Assembly (NCBI GenBank): GCA_016926295.1
Contig: JAFGOX010000041.1
Location: forward strand, 1 to 35,191
DNA length: 35,191 nucleotides
DNA from: Candidatus Iainarchaeum sp.
Lineage (GTDB): Archaea > Iainarchaeota > Iainarchaeia > JAFGOX01
Direction of reading: 5' to 3'
Shown here in pieces: positions 307 through 24,269 of this stretch (within the stretch, counting starts at the first letter, position 1; each line of letters starts with the position of its first letter). Both the position numbers and the translations under genes were made by a program. The notes under the pieces were generated by a model. The model made no database searches. It saw nothing but the letters and a program-made list of their open reading frames with translations, and was not told the DNA's origin.

Positions 307-353
307 AATAATTAGAATTCAGCACGTATTAAACTTCAGAATTAGTGTTAAAA

Positions 354-467
354 GGTAGCAGCACGCTGGGCTTCCCGTGTGGAGCACAGTACCAACCAAC
401 GCACAGAAGGCTTAATTTCCAGGTTCGGAATGTTTCTGGATGTGGCCCCCCTGTTATGGCAGCTACC
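354..467 (-). rRNA. rrf: 5S rRNA
   Basis: Minus strand reads GGUAGCUGCCAUAAC...AUUCCGAACCUGGAAAUUAAGCC...GGUACUG...GGGAA...GCUGCUACC. It has the terminal helix GGUAGC/GCUACC, loop C CCGAAC, UUAAGC and loop E GUA/GGAA motifs. Confidence 0.93.
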
Positions 468-3507: not shown

Positions 3508-5063
3508 ACCTTCATCGGCGTGATTTCAAAGTCCCTGCCGGTGTATTCCTCGATTATCATCTTTTCTATTTCTACCGGATTGTTTGCCTTTGCAAAATTC
3601 TGCGCGTCAAAAAGCTTTGCCTCATTCTCGGCAAATATCTCAAAAAGAATCTGGCCCTTCTTGACCCGCGAACCGTTCATAACATACAACTGAATTCCCG
3701 CCCCTTTTGTTATCGGCGAGCCTGCAATTCGCGCAATTTTGTTCACAGTTCTGTTGTTGATTATCGCCACAGTTCCGTTCTTTTCTGAGCGGAATTCATA
3801 TCTTTGCTTTCCGACAGGTATGTCTTCTGACTTTATATCAGGATTACCGCCCTGCGCCTTGATTATTCTCCTGAACTGAGTCAATGCCTTCTTGTTCTCG
3901 ATTGTCTTTTTCGCAATCTCATATCCTTCGCCCTTGCTGCAATGCCCGGCCATCTCCAGAAGTTTTCCGGCAAGCAGACAGGACTTGTCTGCCAAATCCT
4001 CAAATCTCTTTCCTTCAAGAATTTCCAGAACGTATTTTGACTCAAGCGCCGGCCCTGCCACTCTCCCGACAGGCTGGTCGCCGTCAGTTATCAAAACATT
4101 TACAATTATCCCGACTTTGGCGCCGACTTCCACAAATTTCCTCGCAAGCTCTTTCGCCTCATCCATATTCTTGACTTTGACATGCGGCCCCATAGGAATA
4201 TCTATGACTGCATAAGTCGCTCCAACCGCCAGTTTCTTTGCAAGAACAGATGAAACAAGCTGGCCCTGGGGGTCAAGGGAAAGCGGATGCTCTACTTTTA
4301 TGATCTTGTCATCAGCTGGCGCAAGATTTACTGAGCCGCCCCATATAAGCGCGCCACCGGTTTCGTCAACTATTCTTTTTATCTCGGCAATATTATGCTC
4401 AACCGGCATCAAAACCTCCAACGTGTCTGCAGTGCCGGCTGCTGACGTTATCGCCCTGCTACTAGTCTTTGGCATTATGTAACCCAAAGAAGTCACAATA
4501 GAAACAACAAGGGGAGATGTTCTGTTTCCGGCCACTCCGCCGATCGAATGCTTGTCTAAAATCTTCCTGTGCCCTAATCCAAGACTCTCCCCGCTTTCGA
4601 CCATGTGCTTTACCATTGACACAATCTCATCATCTGTGAAACCGTGATTGTAAACCCCTGCAACAAAATAGGTTATCTCGACCTCGCTCAGATTATTAGT
4701 GCTGATATCATAAATTATCTGCCCTATCTCTTCATCGCTTAGTGTCTCTCCGACCAGTTTCCTTTTTATCGCATCAATGGATTTCGGCTGTTCGGCAACA
4801 GTAATAAAAAGTTTGTCCCCTGTCTTCGAATTAAGCCTTTTCCCAACACTTCCAAATAAGCCTATCTGCTTGGGCTTGACAATTGTCTCTGTTGTGTTGA
4901 CTATTGCGGTCATCACTTTCTGGTTGGATGGATTTTTTATGCGCACACGCGACAAAGTAGGAGCATCAAGCTTTTTTGATGTAATTTCATTAAGGAGAAT
5001 TATTGGCTTGTCCGCATCCATGTCAAGTACCTTTGCTAACAAAGGCAGCTCATAGGTGTTCAT
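3504..5063 (-). CDS. AMP phosphorylase
   Basis: N-terminal extension domain, DKHSIGGVAGN, PKTSSRAITSAAGTAD, WGG.V.LAPADD, AQGG. Confidence 0.95.
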   Translation of the reverse strand: MNTYELPLLAKVLDMDADKPIILLNEITSKKLDAPTLSRVRIKNPSNQKVMTAIVNTTETIVKPKQIGLFGSVGKRLNSKTGDKLFITVAEQPKSIDAIKRKLVGETLSDEEIGQIIYDISTNNLSEVEITYFVAGVYNHGFTDDEIVSMVKHMVESGESLGLGHRKILDKHSIGGVAGNRTSPLVVSIVTSLGYIMPKTSSRAITSAAGTADTLEVLMPVEHNIAEIKRIVDETGGALIWGGSVNLAPADDKIIKVEHPLSLDPQGQLVSSVLAKKLAVGATYAVIDIPMGPHVKVKNMDEAKELARKFVEVGAKVGIIVNVLITDGDQPVGRVAGPALESKYVLEILEGKRFEDLADKSCLLAGKLLEMAGHCSKGEGYEIAKKTIENKKALTQFRRIIKAQGGNPDIKSEDIPVGKQRYEFRSEKNGTVAIINNRTVNKIARIAGSPITKGAGIQLYVMNGSRVKKGQILFEIFAENEAKLFDAQNFAKANNPVEIEKMIIEEYTGRDFEITPMKV

Positions 5064-16099: not shown

Positions 16100-19000
16100 T
16101 TATTCTTCTATTTTAATCGTTTCATCTGTAATCGGCTTCTGAACATCCTTGCCTGAAAGCTTTAATCCGACTACAGAAGAGCCATCTGCACCCCTGGCCA
16201 CACCAATTACCTGGTCCACAGCCCTGATTACTATGTCATTGTGGCTGATAATCACAAACTGTGAAATGTTTGCATAGTTTTTCAGCAGACCGCCAAGTTT
16301 GTTTGCATTAACTGCATCTAAAGCCGCATCGGCCTCATCCAAAATATAAAACGGCGCAGGTTTGTGCTGCTGTATTGCAAACAGGAAAGCCAAGGAAGTG
16401 AGTGTTTTCTCACCGCCACTCAACGCGTCTATATTCCTGAGCATTGCCCTGCCTTTTGGAGCCGCCTCAATAAGCAGACCTGAATTGAACAGGTCTTCCT
16501 CATTGTCAATCTTAAGCGTTCCTTTGCCTTCAGTAAGCTGCGGATAAACAGTCTCAAAGTTCACTCTGATTGAATCGAATGTTTCTCTAAAGGCTTTTTC
16601 CCTCTTAGAATCAATCTTTGATATCATATCGAGAACTACTTCTCTCTCGCGTCTCAAAATGTCAATCTTTTCCTCAATCTCATTAATCTTCTGAAGATAC
16701 TCATCGTAAAGAGTAAGGGCGCGCATATTGACTGCGCCAAGAGCTTCGATTTTTGCTTCAAGCTCCGGAAGCTGCCTCATTAGGTCACTAACCGAATCCT
16801 TGAGCGGCTCAACGCCAACATATTGCTTGAATTCCTCTTTCAAATCTGCCAGCTTTGTCTCGACTTTTGCCATGTTGATTCTGGCCTCATTAACAGACGA
16901 TTCTATTCCGCTTATTCGGCCAAGATGCTTGCCTTTTGACATTCCCAGCTCTTCAAGCTTCTTGTCAACCGCATCTTTTCTTTCCAATAAAGTTTCAAGG
17001 CTCTTTGAAGTCTTCCTTAATTCAATCTCTTTCTTTTCAAGCTCTTTTGAAAGGATTGTGATACTGTTATTCGAAACCTTTATTTCATTGTCAAATGAAT
17101 CTGTTTCTTTTGAAATATTTTCAATCTGCGCAACAGTTTCTTTCTTTCTGATTTCAAGACCCTGCTCAATTTCAGTCTTAAGTCTCTGAACACCTACAGT
17201 CTGGGTTGACATCGACTCTTTCAATGCATCTATCTGCTTGCTCAAGTCGTCTATCTCCAGTCTGCTTTTGCTTGCACGAGATTTTGCAACCAGGGTTTCT
17301 ATCTCTTTCTTCTCAGTTTCCAGTTGGCTTATCTTTGTCAATAGTTTCTCTGATTCTTTCTTCTTAAGCTTAACATGTGATTCAATATCCTTAACAGAAA
17401 CAAGCAATCCCTTCTGCGTATCCCCTAGTTGCTCAGAAAGTATGTTTCTTTCTTTCTCAACTTCCTTGATTTTTCCCTCAATCTCTGCGCGCTTTTCCCT
17501 TAGCTCGTTTGACTCTATTCTCACGCGCTCGATATCGCTTAAGGCATTGCGCTTCATTGCCTCGACATCCATAACCTGCTGTTCAAGCTCCTTGACCCTT
17601 TTAACATCCTTAATCGTAAGCGTCTTCTTGTTCCTTGAACCACCAAGCATTACTCCGGAGGATTCTGATATATCGCCATCTTCGGTAACCATTCTTATTT
17701 TTCCGACGCCAACCTTTCTCGCACTCTCAATTTTGTCAATAACAAGTGTGTCTCCAAAAATATACTCAAATGCAGGCCTGAAAGATTCTCTGAAATCAAC
17801 CAGATTTATGGCAAAGTCAATTGCACCGGCATTCTTTGCAAGCGGTTTCACTTCTGCAGTAATGGCCCGCCCTCTGATTTTATTGAGCGGGATAAAGGCA
17901 ACCCTTCCAAGATTCTTCTTCTTTAGATAATTAATACAATCTGTTGCGGTCTTATCGTCATCCACCACAACATAAAACATCTTCGAGCCGATTGCAGTCT
18001 CGATTGCAACAGCATTATTATCAGAGTACTTGCACAAATCAGCGACAGTGCCGTATATTCCTGAAATTTCACTTTTCTTTTTTGCCTCAATAAGGGCGTC
18101 AACTCCGGGTGGCTGCATAAGTCCTGCTGATTTCAAGGTTGAAAGCGTTGTTTTAAGCGAAACATAATCCTCTCTTATTGCCTTAAGCTCGTTCTCAACT
18201 GTTTCAAATTTCTTGTTTACTCTTTTCTCTTCCTCAAAATATGATGATATGCTTCTGTTAACGGAGTCAAGTTCGTTCTTGTAGGATGCAAGCTCTTCTT
18301 CAATTGCATCATATCTTGACTGGGCTTTTTTGATTGCCTCTTCTGCGCCCTGAGACTGCTCCTTCTTTATTTCAATTTCCCTTGTGTATGCGTCAATCGC
18401 GGCTTTTAATAAATAGAACTGCTCTTTCAGTCCGTCAATCTCTATTGACTTCTTCCTGAGCTGTGACTCGTGTTCGTAAGCGGACTCGTCCTCTTGCTTG
18501 TATTTCTCAAGTAATTCAGTCTGCTTGTCTCGGAGGTCCTTTAATTTCTTAAGTTCTGGGGCATTCTTCTCTTCCAGTGCTTTCAGCTCATTCTCCTTCT
18601 GGGTAATTTCAGATTCAATATTTGACTGCCTTTCGCGCAACTCCTGAATCGCCTGTGTATTTTTGCTAATCTGCTCTTTTCTTGACTTTGTCTTTTCCTT
18701 GTTAAGCTCAATATCGGTTCTTAATTTTTCCATGTCCTGCGCAAGCTTTGTCTGACCTGCCCCACCAGATTCAAGGATTTCCTTGTTCAGGTCCTTGAGT
18801 TTTTTGTCCCATGTCGATATCTCCGCATCAAGTTCCTCAATCTTTTCCTTTGCCTCTTTTATTTTTGTATCGCTGCTCTCAAGCAGTTTCCTGTTGTGCT
18901 CAAAGTCTTTTTCATATCTCTGTATTTCAGAGCCAAGGACTGTTGATTTTATTCTTTTTACCTTTGTATTGAGTTCCTGGAATCTTTCAGCATCCTCTTT

Positions 19001-21445
19001 GTCCTTCTTCAATGCGTCAAGCATCTCCTGCCTTTCGCCCTTAATAATATGCCATTCCTTGATCTTGTCTTCGACCTTGTCCAGTTGTCTCAGGGACTCC
19101 ACTTTCTTCTCTTCGTACTCTGCAATCCCTGCAACCTCGTCAATCACGGTTCTTCTCATTCTAGGGGTCATTTCAATAACCCTTTCAATATCTCCCTGCA
19201 AAACAACGTTATGGCCGGAAGTACTGATATTAAGACTCATAAGCAACGCATGGATTGCGCTCCTTGTGGTCCTTTTCCCGTCAATTCTATAAACCGATTT
19301 GCCCTGTTTGTCAATTGTTCTCGTGACAACATAATCCTTTTCCCCGTCCTTTAGGACAACACTAACGCGGGCCTTGCCATCAACTGACTTGTGAAAAACT
19401 AGGTCACTTAATCTGTCTGCACGAATTGTCTTAAGACTGGAAATTCCAAAAACAAACATCAGAGCGTCAATTACATTGGAATTATGAACAATACAATTTT
19501 CTGCAACAAAATTATGATAAGGAATTACGGTTAAATCATAAACATATTTGTCTTTTGGGACAATCCTTCTTATATCTACTATTTCTTCCCAATAAACCTC
19601 TGAATTGGCCAATCTGCGTAACAACGTTATTTTTTCTCTTACTAGGACACTATTACTTTTCATAAGTTGTGAGAATGCTAATTTAATTTTAGATAAGGTT
19701 TGTCTGTTTGGTACTCTGGCGCCACGTATAAAATCACTAATATTATTCGCAACACCTGCATATTGTGCAAATCCTTTTTGACTTATTCTAAACGTGTGTA
19801 AAAATAAATCCAACCCCAAAAAAAGCTCATTTTCATTAACTTTTTCTATTTCATTTAATTTACTCTCAAAAATATCTGCAACCTCAATTAATCCTGCCCT
19901 ACTTGGTGCACAAGATCCTTCTAAATAAGCCTTAAGCTTTGGATGCCCAAAACCACTGAGTTCTTTTGAATTAACTCTTAATATAGAAAACAAATCACGA
20001 ATAATTGGCTGAACACCCGGTATAACATCAAAATTTGGATTTGTTTTTTTATTTTGGAAAGATTCTAAAACCTGCGTCAAAGTTTCTTTCTTTTTACCAA
20101 CAAGATAAATGTTTTCATTAAACAAACCTAAATTTCCCTTACCATAAATAGATAATCTATAATGGGTTCTACGAACTTTGTTCTTAGTATTAGCTGCACA
20201 TTTCTCAGTCTTACTAATTGTTGAAGAAATTCCTAACCTAAGCAGAAGCGTTTGCATAGCATATATTATATCTTTGCTGGCTGAAGTAAGTTCAAGATGA
20301 TTTTTAGAAACGTGGCCGTCACCAGAAAAATAACTTCCAATTAAGTGGCCTATTTCCTCATTTGTTAACTCAAACACAAAAGGACTAAATTTCTTAGTTG
20401 CTGCATGTGCACCTTGTTTTAAACCAAAAAGGTTTTCAAGATAAACGCCTGCAGCATGAGAAAAAATCATTGAATCATAGCAATTTGGCTTATACTTCTT
20501 TGTATATGCCATAGCCCCAAACAGTTTCTTTGATAGTTTTTCAAAATCTGCTATTATTTTCTTATCTTCATTAATAATTCTAATTTGATTTGAATTCTGG
20601 AACCCGCCTTCTGCGAATAAGTAACCCGCATACCTTGCCAAATCTGCACTAATTTTTGGAACTGCTACTGTTTTGTTTTGTGATTTTGATTTAATTTCTG
20701 TAACAAAGCTAACTATTTCATTTTCTCTACCAATTGCACATAATATTTTTACAAGCCAATAAATATTAACTGCTTGTTTATCCCTTATTCCTTTAATTAC
20801 ATTTTTTGGGATTCCAACTTTAACTGACACATTTACAACTGAACCATAAGCCTTCATTAAATCTGAAATTAAAGAATATACCTTATCTGAATAAGGAACA
20901 TAAATATTATCTTCAAGCCCAAATAAATTAAGTAATAAATTATCACGCCTAAGATTAACTTCTAATTTTCGCGGAGTTGCGACTTTAGAACCAACACTAA
21001 GTTCTTCTGCCTTAGCTGAAGTTATCTTTCCATCTTTTAGAATAATTAAGGGGTGATAAGGTGTTGTTGTAATTTCTTTTCCCGAGCGTAACTTTATATT
21101 TAATAAATTTTCAGGTGCAGTACGTTTTATGAATGCCGTAACTGGAACTTGCTCAATTTTTGCAGTATTTGGATTTAATGAAAGAATTTCTATGCCTTCG
21201 GGGTTACCCAAAGTAAAAATCCCATCATCCATATTTTCTGTTTCTGCGGTCTTAAGGAGTGCAGTATCTACAATATCTTTAATAGTTCTAACCTTTCCAT
21301 TCGCTAATTGAATCTTAGAATCTCCAACTAAACACTTGCCGGAGCCGTTTGCCCCCACAACCGCGGTCAACCCATTAGCAACGGGTATGTCTGCCTTCTT
21401 GAAAGACTTGAAATTTCTAAGTTTAAGCGCATGTATCTTAACCAT
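16100..21445 (-). CDS. smc: chromosome segregation protein SMC, intein-containing precursor (1781 aa; 1163 aa after splicing)
   Basis: NFKSF, Walker A GANGSGK|S, Q-loop LQG, coiled coils, hinge (GRV.FIPL, G...GG), LSGGEK, LDEADAALD, SH switch. Confidence 0.97.
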   Translation of the reverse strand: MVKIHALKLRNFKSFKKADIPVANGLTAVVGANGSGKCLVGDSKIQLANGKVRTIKDIVDTALLKTAETENMDDGIFTLGNPEGIEILSLNPNTAKIEQVPVTAFIKRTAPENLLNIKLRSGKEITTTPYHPLIILKDGKITSAKAEELSVGSKVATPRKLEVNLRRDNLLLNLFGLEDNIYVPYSDKVYSLISDLMKAYGSVVNVSVKVGIPKNVIKGIRDKQAVNIYWLVKILCAIGRENEIVSFVTEIKSKSQNKTVAVPKISADLARYAGYLFAEGGFQNSNQIRIINEDKKIIADFEKLSKKLFGAMAYTKKYKPNCYDSMIFSHAAGVYLENLFGLKQGAHAATKKFSPFVFELTNEEIGHLIGSYFSGDGHVSKNHLELTSASKDIIYAMQTLLLRLGISSTISKTEKCAANTKNKVRRTHYRLSIYGKGNLGLFNENIYLVGKKKETLTQVLESFQNKKTNPNFDVIPGVQPIIRDLFSILRVNSKELSGFGHPKLKAYLEGSCAPSRAGLIEVADIFESKLNEIEKVNENELFLGLDLFLHTFRISQKGFAQYAGVANNISDFIRGARVPNRQTLSKIKLAFSQLMKSNSVLVREKITLLRRLANSEVYWEEIVDIRRIVPKDKYVYDLTVIPYHNFVAENCIVHNSNVIDALMFVFGISSLKTIRADRLSDLVFHKSVDGKARVSVVLKDGEKDYVVTRTIDKQGKSVYRIDGKRTTRSAIHALLMSLNISTSGHNVVLQGDIERVIEMTPRMRRTVIDEVAGIAEYEEKKVESLRQLDKVEDKIKEWHIIKGERQEMLDALKKDKEDAERFQELNTKVKRIKSTVLGSEIQRYEKDFEHNRKLLESSDTKIKEAKEKIEELDAEISTWDKKLKDLNKEILESGGAGQTKLAQDMEKLRTDIELNKEKTKSRKEQISKNTQAIQELRERQSNIESEITQKENELKALEEKNAPELKKLKDLRDKQTELLEKYKQEDESAYEHESQLRKKSIEIDGLKEQFYLLKAAIDAYTREIEIKKEQSQGAEEAIKKAQSRYDAIEEELASYKNELDSVNRSISSYFEEEKRVNKKFETVENELKAIREDYVSLKTTLSTLKSAGLMQPPGVDALIEAKKKSEISGIYGTVADLCKYSDNNAVAIETAIGSKMFYVVVDDDKTATDCINYLKKKNLGRVAFIPLNKIRGRAITAEVKPLAKNAGAIDFAINLVDFRESFRPAFEYIFGDTLVIDKIESARKVGVGKIRMVTEDGDISESSGVMLGGSRNKKTLTIKDVKRVKELEQQVMDVEAMKRNALSDIERVRIESNELREKRAEIEGKIKEVEKERNILSEQLGDTQKGLLVSVKDIESHVKLKKKESEKLLTKISQLETEKKEIETLVAKSRASKSRLEIDDLSKQIDALKESMSTQTVGVQRLKTEIEQGLEIRKKETVAQIENISKETDSFDNEIKVSNNSITILSKELEKKEIELRKTSKSLETLLERKDAVDKKLEELGMSKGKHLGRISGIESSVNEARINMAKVETKLADLKEEFKQYVGVEPLKDSVSDLMRQLPELEAKIEALGAVNMRALTLYDEYLQKINEIEEKIDILRREREVVLDMISKIDSKREKAFRETFDSIRVNFETVYPQLTEGKGTLKIDNEEDLFNSGLLIEAAPKGRAMLRNIDALSGGEKTLTSLAFLFAIQQHKPAPFYILDEADAALDAVNANKLGGLLKNYANISQFVIISHNDIVIRAVDQVIGVARGADGSSVVGLKLSGKDVQKPITDETIKIEE
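19481..21334 (-). mobile_element. intein (618 aa) with LAGLIDADG homing endonuclease and HTH-like insertions
   Basis: Block A CLVGDS, block B TTTPYHP, block C YAGYLFAEG, block E LIGSYFSGDG, block F VYDLTV..HNF, block G IVHN followed by +1 Ser. Visibly more AT-rich than the flanking smc. Confidence 0.96.
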
Positions 21446-21479: not shown

Positions 21480-22304
21480 CTATTTCTTGTTTTCTGAATA
21501 ATAGTACGAAGGGACTAAAAACATATACCAAGCCAAAACCCCGTTTACAAGCGCCAGAGAGACGCTCAGAAGAGGCTCGTCCAGATTGATTAAGACAAAG
21601 CTTAGTAAGTTGAAAACTACCGTGACAATAATTCCGCTCGCCAAGACAAGCAGGAATATGTGCAAGTACTTGCCCCTTGAAAACTCCAGGCTTGCGCGTA
21701 TCGCCTTCTGCGGCTTCAAATCAGCATTCATTACAAATGCCGGAATTGCCACGAAAAGCTTTATTACAAACATGAAAGCCAGTACTGCAAATAATAGTAC
21801 GAATAATGTTGAAATTACTGTACTAATAATCCCCATATTCGGGAGTAATGTAAAGGCTTGGAACAATACAAGGAATAGCAATCCTACCACCATACTAAAA
21901 AGGAATAGCAGGAAGCTGAGTGATATCATTCCGGGGACTCTTTTGAATAATAATCCAAGCTCGTGAGAAAGGGGGGTGGTTTCTTTTGCTGACTTAACGC
22001 CGGCTGCTGCAAGGGCAAATAAGAAGACGCTAAAGAAGAATCCTACAAACCCTAACAGTATAAGGAAATTGAATGCGTCAGGCTGGGTTGCGTAAAGGGC
22101 GGACGGTACTGCTGCCAAGGGCTGGCCTGCCCCGAGGATGGTAAACATGGAGTCTGCCAAATCATATGACACATTTAGCAAATAGTCTGAAAATGCAAAA
22201 CTCATGATTAAATTTATAGCAATAAACAGAACCAAAATCAAGGGCGCTTTGGCGAATTGCTCAAAGGGCTTTATCAAATATTTTAGGCACATCTCTACCA
22301 CCAT
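21480..22304 (-). CDS. multi-pass membrane protein
   Basis: About 6 TM helices and an A...S...S.G motif typical of uncharacterised archaeal membrane proteins. Confidence 0.8.
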   Translation of the reverse strand: MVVEMCLKYLIKPFEQFAKAPLILVLFIAINLIMSFAFSDYLLNVSYDLADSMFTILGAGQPLAAVPSALYATQPDAFNFLILLGFVGFFFSVFLFALAAAGVKSAKETTPLSHELGLLFKRVPGMISLSFLLFLFSMVVGLLFLVLFQAFTLLPNMGIISTVISTLFVLLFAVLAFMFVIKLFVAIPAFVMNADLKPQKAIRASLEFSRGKYLHIFLLVLASGIIVTVVFNLLSFVLINLDEPLLSVSLALVNGVLAWYMFLVPSYYYSENKK

Positions 22305-22398
22305 CTCCTTATTAAAACCTTTGCCTGCATAGGTTATATATTGAATTTAACCAACTAACGCACAAGTCTTTTTAAATGTATATAACAGGTGTTAAAGT

Positions 22399-22683
22399 AT
22401 GGAATTCCCATTGAAAATCAATATGTACTGCCCTAAATGCAACAAGCACTCCGAGCACAAGCTCAAGGAATGGAAAAAGGGTAAGCGAGACTTCATGAGA
22501 AAGAAAAGTAGATTTGTCTACGGAAAACGTTTCATGGGTTATGGTGCCAACAGGCCAAAGGCTACAGGCACTAAGAAGCAGGCAAAGCGTTTTATTGCAC
22601 TGGCAACCTGTAGTATCTGCAAAAGAAAAGTTTACTTCAAATCAGCAACAAGAATGAAAAAAGCACAATTAGCGCAAAAATAA
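22399..22683 (+). CDS. rpl44e: 50S ribosomal protein eL42 (L44e)
   Basis: P..I..YCP.C.KH..H, KKGK, GYG, C..C zinc ribbon. Confidence 0.9.
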   Translation: MEFPLKINMYCPKCNKHSEHKLKEWKKGKRDFMRKKSRFVYGKRFMGYGANRPKATGTKKQAKRFIALATCSICKRKVYFKSATRMKKAQLAQK

Positions 22684-22723
22684 GCTATTTCTACTGGCAA
22701 TTTGTGAACAAATTTATACAATG

Positions 22724-22785
22724 TGAATCAGTAGCCAGTTTGCTCATCATTCCTAAGTCAGCGTTTGTTCACATCATCATCTTCT
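22724..22785 (-). ncRNA. box C/D methylation guide sRNA
   Basis: C AUGAUGA (22780-22774), 12-nt guide UGUGAACAAACG, D' CUGA (22761-22758), 7-nt spacer, C' AUGAUGA (22750-22744), 12-nt guide GCAAACUGGCUA, D CUGA (22731-22728). All four boxes are perfect with canonical 12-nt guides. Confidence 0.92.
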
Positions 22786-22806
22786 TCTAAAGTAGGAGAA
22801 CAAGCA

Positions 22807-22814
22807 TTTATAAA
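22807..22814 (-). promoter_or_regulatory. candidate TATA box for the C/D sRNA
   Basis: TTTATAAA immediately 3' of tRNA-Phe, about 26 nt upstream of box C. Confidence 0.5.
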
Positions 22815-22815
22815 G

Positions 22816-22888
22816 TGGGAAGGGTGGGAATTGAACCCACGGCCTCTCGGTCTTCAGCCGAGCGCTCTCCCGACTGAGCTACCTTCCC
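22816..22888 (-). tRNA. tRNA-Phe (GAA), no intron, CCA not encoded
   Basis: GGGAAGG/CCUUCCC acceptor, GCUC/GAGC D-stem, CUCGG-CUGAAGA-CCGAG anticodon arm, GUGGG-UUCAAUU-CCCAC T-arm, discriminator A. Confidence 0.97.
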
Positions 22889-22997
22889 TAAAAGTCGGAT
22901 GTGAGATACTAAGCATTAGCGTAAAAAAGGCTTTAAATGTATTAGGTCAACCTGGCTGATTTCCTATTTAAAAATGTTTCCACGCTCTAGTTTATAT

Positions 22998-24269
22998 ATG
23001 AGGGCGGGGAGATTAATACTGCTATTGTTAATTTTGCCTTTTTTTGTTAATGCGTATGAGTGCAATGTAGATATTACTAACTACACGACTGACACAACAG
23101 TCAGCGCAAGCAGTTCAATACTGTACAAGATATATGTTGCCAACAAGGGCAGCGATACAATTGACCTTATTTTCACAACCAACAGTCCTTACAGTTATGA
23201 TATAGACCCATTAACAAAATCCTTAAGCCCCGGAAGGGGCCAGTGGGTTGACTTCAGGGTTTATGTCCCCAGCTCAGCAAGCAACGGGCAAAAGCAGATT
23301 AATTTCAATGCAGTAAGATACGACGGAAGCACAAGCTGTGTGAATGAGGGCTATCTGTCACTTTACGTGATAAACGGCTCGGGGAATACAACCAGTGACA
23401 GCTTAAGCTATGAGAATGTGGAAATAACCAACTGGCCTTCAGACATGTCAAGTCTGGCAGGGCAAAGCCTGACTTTCGGATTTGTGCTGAAGAACAGGAG
23501 CTATGACGGAATAAGTGTTGACGTAGGACTTGACACCCGCATCAAGTGGGAGTGCGATACAACCAATGTTTATCTGGGCCCTTATGACTCAAAGAATATA
23601 CAGTTCACTGTTTACCCGACAAACAATGACGCAGGGAACAACACAGTAAAGTTCTTTGCGAATTACAAAGGGCATACATTGAGAAAGGAACTGGGGCTTC
23701 TGGTCTATGAAACTACTGAGGCAAATGATAAAACAATAACCGAACCCATAACACAAATCGGGCAATTGACTTTGGAAACAAAAGATCTGGAACGAAAAAT
23801 AGTCGGAAACAATGTCGAGAATGAATTCACTTTAGTTGTAAAAAATGAGAATCCGTTTGATACAGTCGCAGAGGAAATAGTAGTTGAGGACATTCCCGAA
23901 GACTGGAGCGTAAAGATAGAAAGAGACTCGTTCATGGTTTTTTCCGGGGAAATTGCGGAAACAAAAATCAAAATAATTCCAATCGGTGAGACCAGGGATG
24001 CTACAGCAAAAATCAGCATTTACTATGCCGGACAGAAGACAGGAACAACGACTATTGAAATAAACGAAGAACTTACCCCTTTGGGAGGAAGCGGTTTATT
24101 CCTTGGAGCTAGCGGGGGCGTTTTGCAGGCTGTGCTTGCAATAGTCGGCGCGGTATTGTTGATTATGTTTATCTCTAATTTAGTTAGACGATATGAATAC
24201 GAAAGAACAACGAAGGAACAGGAGCTTGCAAAAAGAAAGCAGGAAGAGCAGATGAGGCATTATTTTTAA
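22998..24269 (+). CDS. Ig-like/NEW3-type repeat surface protein (COG1470-like) with C-terminal TM anchor
   Basis: Signal peptide, repeats V.N.G...L.PG...V.F.V.VP, DIP.DW motif, C-terminal TM plus charged tail. Start set to the ATG at 22998. Confidence 0.8.
   Translation: MRAGRLILLLLILPFFVNAYECNVDITNYTTDTTVSASSSILYKIYVANKGSDTIDLIFTTNSPYSYDIDPLTKSLSPGRGQWVDFRVYVPSSASNGQKQINFNAVRYDGSTSCVNEGYLSLYVINGSGNTTSDSLSYENVEITNWPSDMSSLAGQSLTFGFVLKNRSYDGISVDVGLDTRIKWECDTTNVYLGPYDSKNIQFTVYPTNNDAGNNTVKFFANYKGHTLRKELGLLVYETTEANDKTITEPITQIGQLTLETKDLERKIVGNNVENEFTLVVKNENPFDTVAEEIVVEDIPEDWSVKIERDSFMVFSGEIAETKIKIIPIGETRDATAKISIYYAGQKTGTTTIEINEELTPLGGSGLFLGASGGVLQAVLAIVGAVLLIMFISNLVRRYEYERTTKEQELAKRKQEEQMRHYF

Follow-up and report, generated by a model that had tools for sequence, protein, structure and literature searches.

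The 2'-O-methylation of U2552 in the A-loop (Um2552) is among the few rRNA modifications kept across all three domains. In bacteria and many archaea, U2552 is the substrate of RlmE/RrmJ, a stand-alone 2'-O-methyltransferase of the FtsJ family. This enzyme leads to the same end product in the A-loop as a guided reaction would, yet it is a protein-only system with no guide RNA. In yeast, methylation of the equivalent nucleotide is guided by the C/D snoRNA snR52, with the Spb1 protein. That system, unlike the one presented below, is a eukaryotic snoRNP; its second target is another one, and a protein enzyme backs it up.

Guide RNAs for this nucleotide are also known from archaea. Guided methylation of U2552 was predicted in five of the seven archaea studied by Dennis et al. 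(2015, PMC4644070), and 262 of the 489 archaeal sRNAs considered there are double guides whose targets lie at most 100 nt apart. According to a review, experiments show a modification of the A-loop at U2552 and/or G2553 in every case (PMC7994747). A particularly close counterpart is the sR10 sRNA of N. equitans, whose D' guide is reported to act on U2552 and whose D guide is reported to act on C2606, at the base of helix 93 (PMC4644070). Like sR10 of the DPANN archaeon N. equitans, as reported there, the RNA described here is a double guide from a reduced genome, probably of DPANN type as judged by its small size; its D' guide would act on U2552 and its D guide on helix 93, at the base or on the 3' side. 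By predicted target it differs in its second guide, which is directed to C2601, 5 nt upstream of the C2606 reported for sR10. In other words, guides for U2552 are already known and their mechanism is textbook knowledge; the difference at this locus is the shift of the second target by 5 nt.

The locus lies in a window of 35,191 nt, which is the whole stretch of DNA that was analysed, and is read from the minus strand. It sits in a spacer, with the convergent gene for ribosomal protein L44e on one side and a tRNA-Phe(GAA) gene on the other. Its boxes were read from the sequence and fit a strict pattern, RUGAUGA-N10-13-CUGA-N2-14-UGAUGA-N10-13-CUGA, which was searched for throughout the 592,378-bp genome in both orientations. 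The features of the locus, with the basis of each in brackets, are as follows.

22888-22815, minus strand: tRNA-Phe(GAA), ending 34 nt upstream of box C (ARAGORN; Rfam tRNA, 75.2 bits)
22807-22814, minus strand: candidate box A UUUAUAAA, TATA-like, directly after the tRNA and 27-34 nt upstream of box C (sequence)
22780-22774, minus strand: box C, AUGAUGA (sequence; strict pattern match)
22773-22762, minus strand: D' guide UGUGAACAAACG, 12 nt, with guide base A22766 at N+5 (pairing with the genome's own 23S rRNA)
22761-22758, minus strand: box D', CUGA (sequence; strict pattern match)
22757-22751, minus strand: 7-nt loop CUUAGGA leading from D' to C' (sequence)
22750-22744, minus strand: box C', AUGAUGA (sequence; strict pattern match)
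22743-22732, minus strand: D guide GCAAACUGGCUA, 12 nt, with guide base G22736 at N+5 (pairing with the genome's own 23S rRNA)
22731-22728, minus strand: box D, CUGA (sequence; strict pattern match)
22680-22676, minus strand: first U5 run after box D, overlapping the last L44e codons (sequence)
22399-22683, plus strand: convergent gene for ribosomal protein L44e (Pfam)

From box C to box D, the sRNA spans 22780-22728. All four boxes match the consensus and each guide spacer is exactly 12 nt long, so that the four perfect boxes and two 12-nt guides named in a preliminary description of this DNA are exact on a minus-strand reading. The same description had called the locus a dual-guide box C/D sRNA, and this is borne out by the boxes, the spacings and the complementarity of the guides to 23S rRNA. 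The locus thus very probably encodes a double-guide box C/D sRNA of the canonical archaeal form, about 53-60 nt long, the RNA and its methylations being predictions from sequence. The terminal stem beside boxes C and D is weak, with only 2-3 possible base pairs (GAAG on the 5' side of C, UUC on the 3' side of D) versus 5 bp in each of the two other C/D candidates of the genome; the ends of N. equitans sRNAs are reported not to be base-paired (PMC3491384).

An RNA of this kind would act through a ribonucleoprotein. L7Ae would bind the C/D k-turn and the C'/D' k-loop, after which Nop5 and fibrillarin would assemble onto the sRNA. Each 12-nt guide would then pair with nascent 23S rRNA, and fibrillarin would 2'-O-methylate the nucleotide opposite the guide base that is fifth upstream from box D' or D, which is the N+5 position. 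All three proteins are encoded in the genome, as the preliminary description had proposed to check. Fibrillarin (PF01269, 275.3 bits) and Nop5 (PF01798, 213.7 bits) adjoin on contig C4, and L7Ae (PF01248, 95.2 bits) is on contig C28; all of these scores are above the respective cut-offs.

The guides were compared with the single 23S gene (C1:5344-8465, minus strand) and the single 16S gene of the genome. The D' guide forms 10 contiguous Watson–Crick base pairs with positions 2743-2752 of the genome's own 23S rRNA, inside GGUUUGUUCACC. Its N+5 nucleotide, in an A-U Watson–Crick pair, is own U2746, which corresponds to E. coli U2552 in a MAFFT alignment with E. coli rrlH. This duplex, at -14.2 kcal/mol, is the lowest among all 12-nt windows of 23S and 16S rRNA. 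The A-loop's initial nucleotide, in helix 92, would therefore be the methylation target of the D' guide under the N+5 rule, as had been proposed. The helix 92 sequence predicted there, CGUUUGUUC, needs a minor correction, the actual sequence being GGUUUGUUCACC / GGUUUGUUC; at either end of the guide the terminal base therefore has no partner, which leaves 10 of 12 base pairs.

The D guide likewise forms 10 contiguous Watson–Crick base pairs with own 23S rRNA, at positions 2792-2801 (AGCCAGUUUG, inside GAGCCAGUUUGG), and covers E. coli 2598-2607. The N+5 nucleotide is own C2795, in a G-C Watson–Crick pair, which corresponds to E. coli C2601 in the same alignment. This nucleotide, the neighbour of A2602, belongs to the 3' side of helix 93; it lies 49 nt downstream of U2552 and would be the methylation target of the D guide. 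At -17.0 kcal/mol, the duplex is again the lowest among all 12-nt windows of 23S and 16S rRNA. Both guides therefore show the complement of at least 9 bp in the cognate rRNA by which the proposal was to be judged, and with the Watson–Crick pair at N+5 both fall within the class as it was delimited (at least 9 bp and such a pair). Among other potential targets, the 31 tRNAs found and 5S rRNA offered no run of at least 9 contiguous pairs, the best being non-contiguous with at most 8 Watson–Crick pairs.

The second target had been placed elsewhere in the preliminary description, in the stretch 5' of helix 80 near E. coli 2240, so that a single RNA would bridge A-loop and P-loop sites, on the A-side and the P-side, about 310 nt apart. 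Such a site does exist: own 23S positions 2253-2264 (UAGGUAGUUUGG), equivalent to E. coli 2236-2247, rank second by pair count, with 9 Watson–Crick pairs and one G:U among 12, and sRNAs with distant secondary targets have been described (PMC4644070). However, guide position 4 is mismatched there, and the N+5 nucleotide (own U2257, E. coli U2240) is in a G:U pair, where the prediction rules quoted in that study demand a Watson–Crick pair, and the duplex reaches -10.8 kcal/mol versus -17.0 kcal/mol at 2792-2801. The helix 80 target is thus very improbable, and C2601 is the better-fitting site of the D guide. The actual spacing of the two targets, in helices 92 and 93, is 49 nt instead of about 310 nt, which is ordinary double-guide geometry.

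The strict four-box pattern gave two matches in the genome versus none in each of 20 first-order Markov shuffles. A relaxed scan gave three sites versus counts of 0, 0, 0, 0, 0, 0, 0, 0, 1 and 0 in 10 shuffles. The three relaxed-scan sites are this sRNA, C23:6504-6558 (plus strand) and C9:8862-8808 (minus strand), the last two being the only other C/D sRNA candidates in the assembly. Their terminal stems are 5 bp each, and their best targets are own 23S A1972 (approximately E. coli 1940; 10 Watson–Crick pairs) and own 16S G2112 (E. coli G1401; 9 Watson–Crick pairs and a G:U). The set of guides would accordingly be very small and directed at functional centres.

These counts bear on the simplest alternative, namely that no sRNA exists and that the motifs are a chance cluster in an A/T-rich intergenic spacer, or belong to a structure of the 3' ends of tRNA-Phe or L44e. 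The Rfam score is one point in its favour. At gathering thresholds, only tRNA and one 5S rRNA were found in the whole window, and the generic Pyrococcus C/D model RF00095 (snoPyro_CD) scores 23.7 bits (E 0.005) at the sRNA. As this falls short of the model's gathering score (45), the sRNA is filed in the general C/D class and not as an RF00095 member. An inverted repeat in the 3' trailer, considered below, could additionally suggest a hairpin element. Against a chance cluster stand the absence of the four-box pattern from all 20 shuffles, a whole precursor fold that is no better than that of shuffled sequences (z -0.59), and homologous guides elsewhere that co-vary with their targets. Moreover, 10 contiguous base pairs anywhere in 23S and 16S rRNA were reached by 207 of 20,000 and 216 of 20,000 shuffled guides (about 1% for each), and by 305 of 20,000 random genomic 12-mers, and two such independent matches fall 49 nt apart in the rRNA. 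A chance origin of the motifs is therefore barely conceivable.

The RF00095 match itself is full-length (model positions 1-58 of 58) and on the correct strand, and it is the top match of this model genome-wide as well as the best non-tRNA match in the window at a lax threshold. It arises from boxes and spacing alone, as guides are not shared from one family to another. Two further sources were of little use in either direction. When 40 relatives were searched by BLAST with the 101-nt sRNA region, the matches were all of low complexity (E at least 0.0015), which is uninformative. In contigs of two DNA runs and two RNA runs (metatranscriptomes from the same study), compared over 22300-23300, the sRNA is uncovered in DNA and RNA alike, which is neutral with respect to expression.

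Comparative evidence was sought in 215 species genomes of the same class with the pattern UGAUGA-NNN-GAACAA-NNN-CUGA. The exact pattern occurs in two of them, this genome and G017; with one mismatch allowed, it occurs in 22 of 215, versus 3 matches of a reversed control pattern. An identical guide, CGUGUACAACCG, is present in eight genomes of one family of this class (f3). Five same-class genomes were chosen for a covariation check, and for two of these the assembly contains 23S rRNA. While the A-loop rRNA GUUUGUUCAC of the present genome goes with the guide GUGAACAAAC, the G005 genome of family f3 has the A-loop GGUUGUACAC / GGGUUGUACACC and the guide GUGUACAACC, with 10 Watson–Crick pairs, the unusual A of its loop being matched by the guide. 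In the G002 genome, the A-loop GGUUGUUCACC / GGGUUGUUCACC is paired by the guide GGUGAACAACCG with 11 Watson–Crick pairs. The A-loop of the G005 23S rRNA (L138, about position 4122, the sRNA being in L140) reads UGUAC versus UGUUC in this genome and in E. coli, the U2555 position being an A.

The match in G017 is less clear. Its U2552-type guide is in the D position and forms 9 of 12 pairs, with an internal mismatch, with a binned partial 23S sequence (GGGUUGUCCCCC); this rRNA fragment may be mis-binned. The other guide of this RNA has no clear target.

A wider scan covered one genome for each of 185,579 species and used the full dual-box pattern with a U2552-type D' guide. It gave 74 further dual-guide loci, all archaeal by record title and for the most part DPANN. 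Titles with Micrarchaeota, -ia or -ales account for 30 of them and Altiarchaeota, -ia or -ales for 20. Eight have further DPANN titles (Anstonellales 2, Bilamarchaeaceae 2, Burarchaeum 1, ainarchaeum 2, Nanobdellati 1), and the remaining 16 are Njordarchaeota (2), Methanobacteriota (2), Crenarchaeota (1), Nitrososphaerota (1), Euryarchaeota (1) and records titled 'archaeon' (9). No locus in this exact-box scan is titled N. equitans. In all five wide-scan genomes whose 23S sequence was compared, the D' guide pairs with the cognate A-loop through 9-10 Watson–Crick pairs, in some cases with one G:U in addition, and the guides follow the differences in A-loop flanks (GGUUGUUCGC, GUCUGUUCG, GGUUGUUCAU). 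In one of these (L038), a slightly higher-scoring match of the D' guide lies outside rRNA, in the locus flank, and the A-loop is the best match within rRNA. Overall, the D' guide matches the cognate A-loop in seven of the seven other genomes with 23S rRNA that were checked. At the level of sequence, U2552 guides thus co-vary with the A-loop flanks of their cognate rRNA.

These U2552-type sRNAs, from Micrarchaeota, Altiarchaeota, Iainarchaeota, family f3 and others, have the same boxes, a 12-nt D' guide with the core GAACA(A/G), and N+5 on U2552. A literature search for C/D sRNAs or fibrillarin in DPANN or Micrarchaeota returned nothing relevant, and the breadth of the U2552 guide across uncultivated DPANN lineages may therefore be undocumented, which makes it a modest addition to what is known. 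As a separate observation, Altiarchaeota-titled loci (L035, L041, L045-L052, L059-L063, L069 and others) have, besides the U2552 guide, a conserved one in the D position (NUGAUGGGCGAN). It is ambiguous whether this second guide is directed to the A-loop's own 3' flank or to the 16S decoding site near E. coli 1402. Additionally, in a Micrarchaeota-titled genome (L134, G219:C11:255300-261362), the 23S match extends over about 6.06 kb versus a model of 2987 positions, and the sequence just past the A-loop region diverges, which suggests that this 23S gene carries large insertions or introns.

The conservation of the D' guide does not extend to the D guide. Two of the 74 loci were too near a locus end, and in the 72 that could be parsed none of the U2552-type sRNAs carries the same D guide; their second guides pair 43-61 nt upstream of the A-loop (approximately E. 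coli 2491-2509) or are ambiguous, and none is on C2601. A metagenome scan for the same pair of guides with exact boxes gave no match. A looser pattern gave 23 stretches, none with C and D boxes, which look like chance matches in coding sequence. Because the guide pair is absent from the 72 sRNAs and from both metagenome scans, C2601 is a target predicted from this genome only. The D guide fits own AGCCAGUUUG exactly, whereas the corresponding stretch in relatives is CCAGUAUG, CCAGUACG or GACAGUUUG. One literature search on this modification returned no report of 2'-O-methylation at C2601; the site lists in the supplements of PMC4644070 may include a guide for its equivalent.

Such observations allow for a real C/D sRNP in which only the D' guide, on U2552, is productive, the D guide being an anchor or folding chaperone on helix 93, or an evolving guide without methylation. 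The contrast between a U2552 guide that is conserved and co-varies across lineages and a C2601 guide unique to this genome would agree with such a division, as would the lack of a Cm2601 report in that search, and a chaperone role for double guides has been proposed (PMC4644070). However, the D guide has a perfect 10-bp Watson–Crick helix with a Watson–Crick pair at N+5, its spacer is 12 nt long and its C' and D boxes are consensus, so that its sequence bears no mark of a defect. This makes a single productive guide quite improbable, and a double guide for both U2552 and C2601 is the preferred reading.

The question of which enzyme could otherwise produce Um2552 leads to the RlmE gene. No RlmE/FtsJ gene above the Pfam cut-off was found in the genome, whose assembly is 79% complete, so that its loss is unproven. 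Since no such gene was found, the sRNA is probably the route of this genome to the conserved Um2552. The sole match of the FtsJ model is a 220-aa protein with a sub-threshold score of 21.9 bits; this candidate was rejected, its scores with models of TehB-like or generic methyltransferases being far higher. Across the class, FtsJ matches occur in 178 of 215 genomes, mostly as weak matches to generic methyltransferases, and they show no clean anti-correlation with the guide, G002 having both.

Transcription of the sRNA may proceed by more than one route. The TATA-like box A would be a promoter of its own, with a start predicted about 3-4 nt before box C. Similar A/T boxes are found at about the same distance upstream of the other two C/D candidates of the genome, and in N. 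equitans box A is reported 26 nt upstream of starts (PMC3491384). According to the same source, part of the N. equitans sRNAs have promoters of their own, while others arise from tRNA-sRNA precursors. Both are conceivable for the present sRNA: an own promoter, or read-through from tRNA-Phe giving a tRNA-sRNA precursor. The homologous sRNA of G005 lies 14 nt after a tRNA-Leu; elsewhere, none of the 72 parsed loci is within 200 nt of a tRNA. On the other side of the locus, the U5 run is a candidate archaeal terminator, as judged from its sequence.

A further feature is found between box D and this U5 run. The 3' trailer contains UUUGUUCACA (22712-22703, minus strand), which lies 16 nt after box D, is complementary to 10 nt of the D' guide and is a copy of the A-loop target. 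Complementarity of this length was reached in 19 of 20,000 shuffles of the 100-nt trailer, for an observation that was made post hoc. The trailer also contains a 6-nt complement to the D guide, which is not rare (2,534 of 20,000 shuffles). In 72 other sRNAs, trailer complements were not enriched (mean 4.53 versus 4.57). With the unremarkable fold of the whole precursor (z -0.59) as a further point, the trailer complement to the D' guide is possibly due to chance.

Beyond directing methylation, the sRNA would perhaps aid the local folding of the peptidyl-transferase region by holding two close segments of 23S rRNA. A more far-reaching scheme combines several of these elements: the C/D system would be pared to about three guides for the ribosome core, this sRNA would be the sole route to Um2552 after loss of RlmE and would also methylate C2601, and the trailer would possibly act in cis as a decoy, keeping the guide of the precursor masked. 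As a whole, this scheme is rather unlikely. What the locus illustrates is that a minimal archaeal genome keeps a predicted RNA-guided route to Um2552, apparently without the protein enzyme. The U2552 guide is widespread in uncultivated DPANN and tracks changes in the A-loop, including one genus with UGUAC and a compensating change in the guide. As a marker that is simple and testable, it can serve the annotation of C/D sRNAs in MAGs, and it helps in asking which methylations a minimal ribosome needs.

Several other features of the genome and of the window were observed. The match to the 16S gene (C1:8755-10994) spans 2240 nt versus a model of 1478 positions, and the extra approximately 545-685 nt, toward the 5' end, may represent an intron or insertion. 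In the decoding-site stretch of this rRNA, the genome reads CACUGCCCAUCAA versus CACCGCCCGUCAC in E. coli. Within the window, a 5S rRNA gene (353-467, minus strand; Rfam, 53 bits) lies apart from the 16S-23S pair on contig C1. Finally, a gene for a 1781-aa SMC protein (16100-21445, minus strand) contains an intein that splits it close to the N-terminal ATPase head and includes a homing-endonuclease domain of the LAGLIDADG type.
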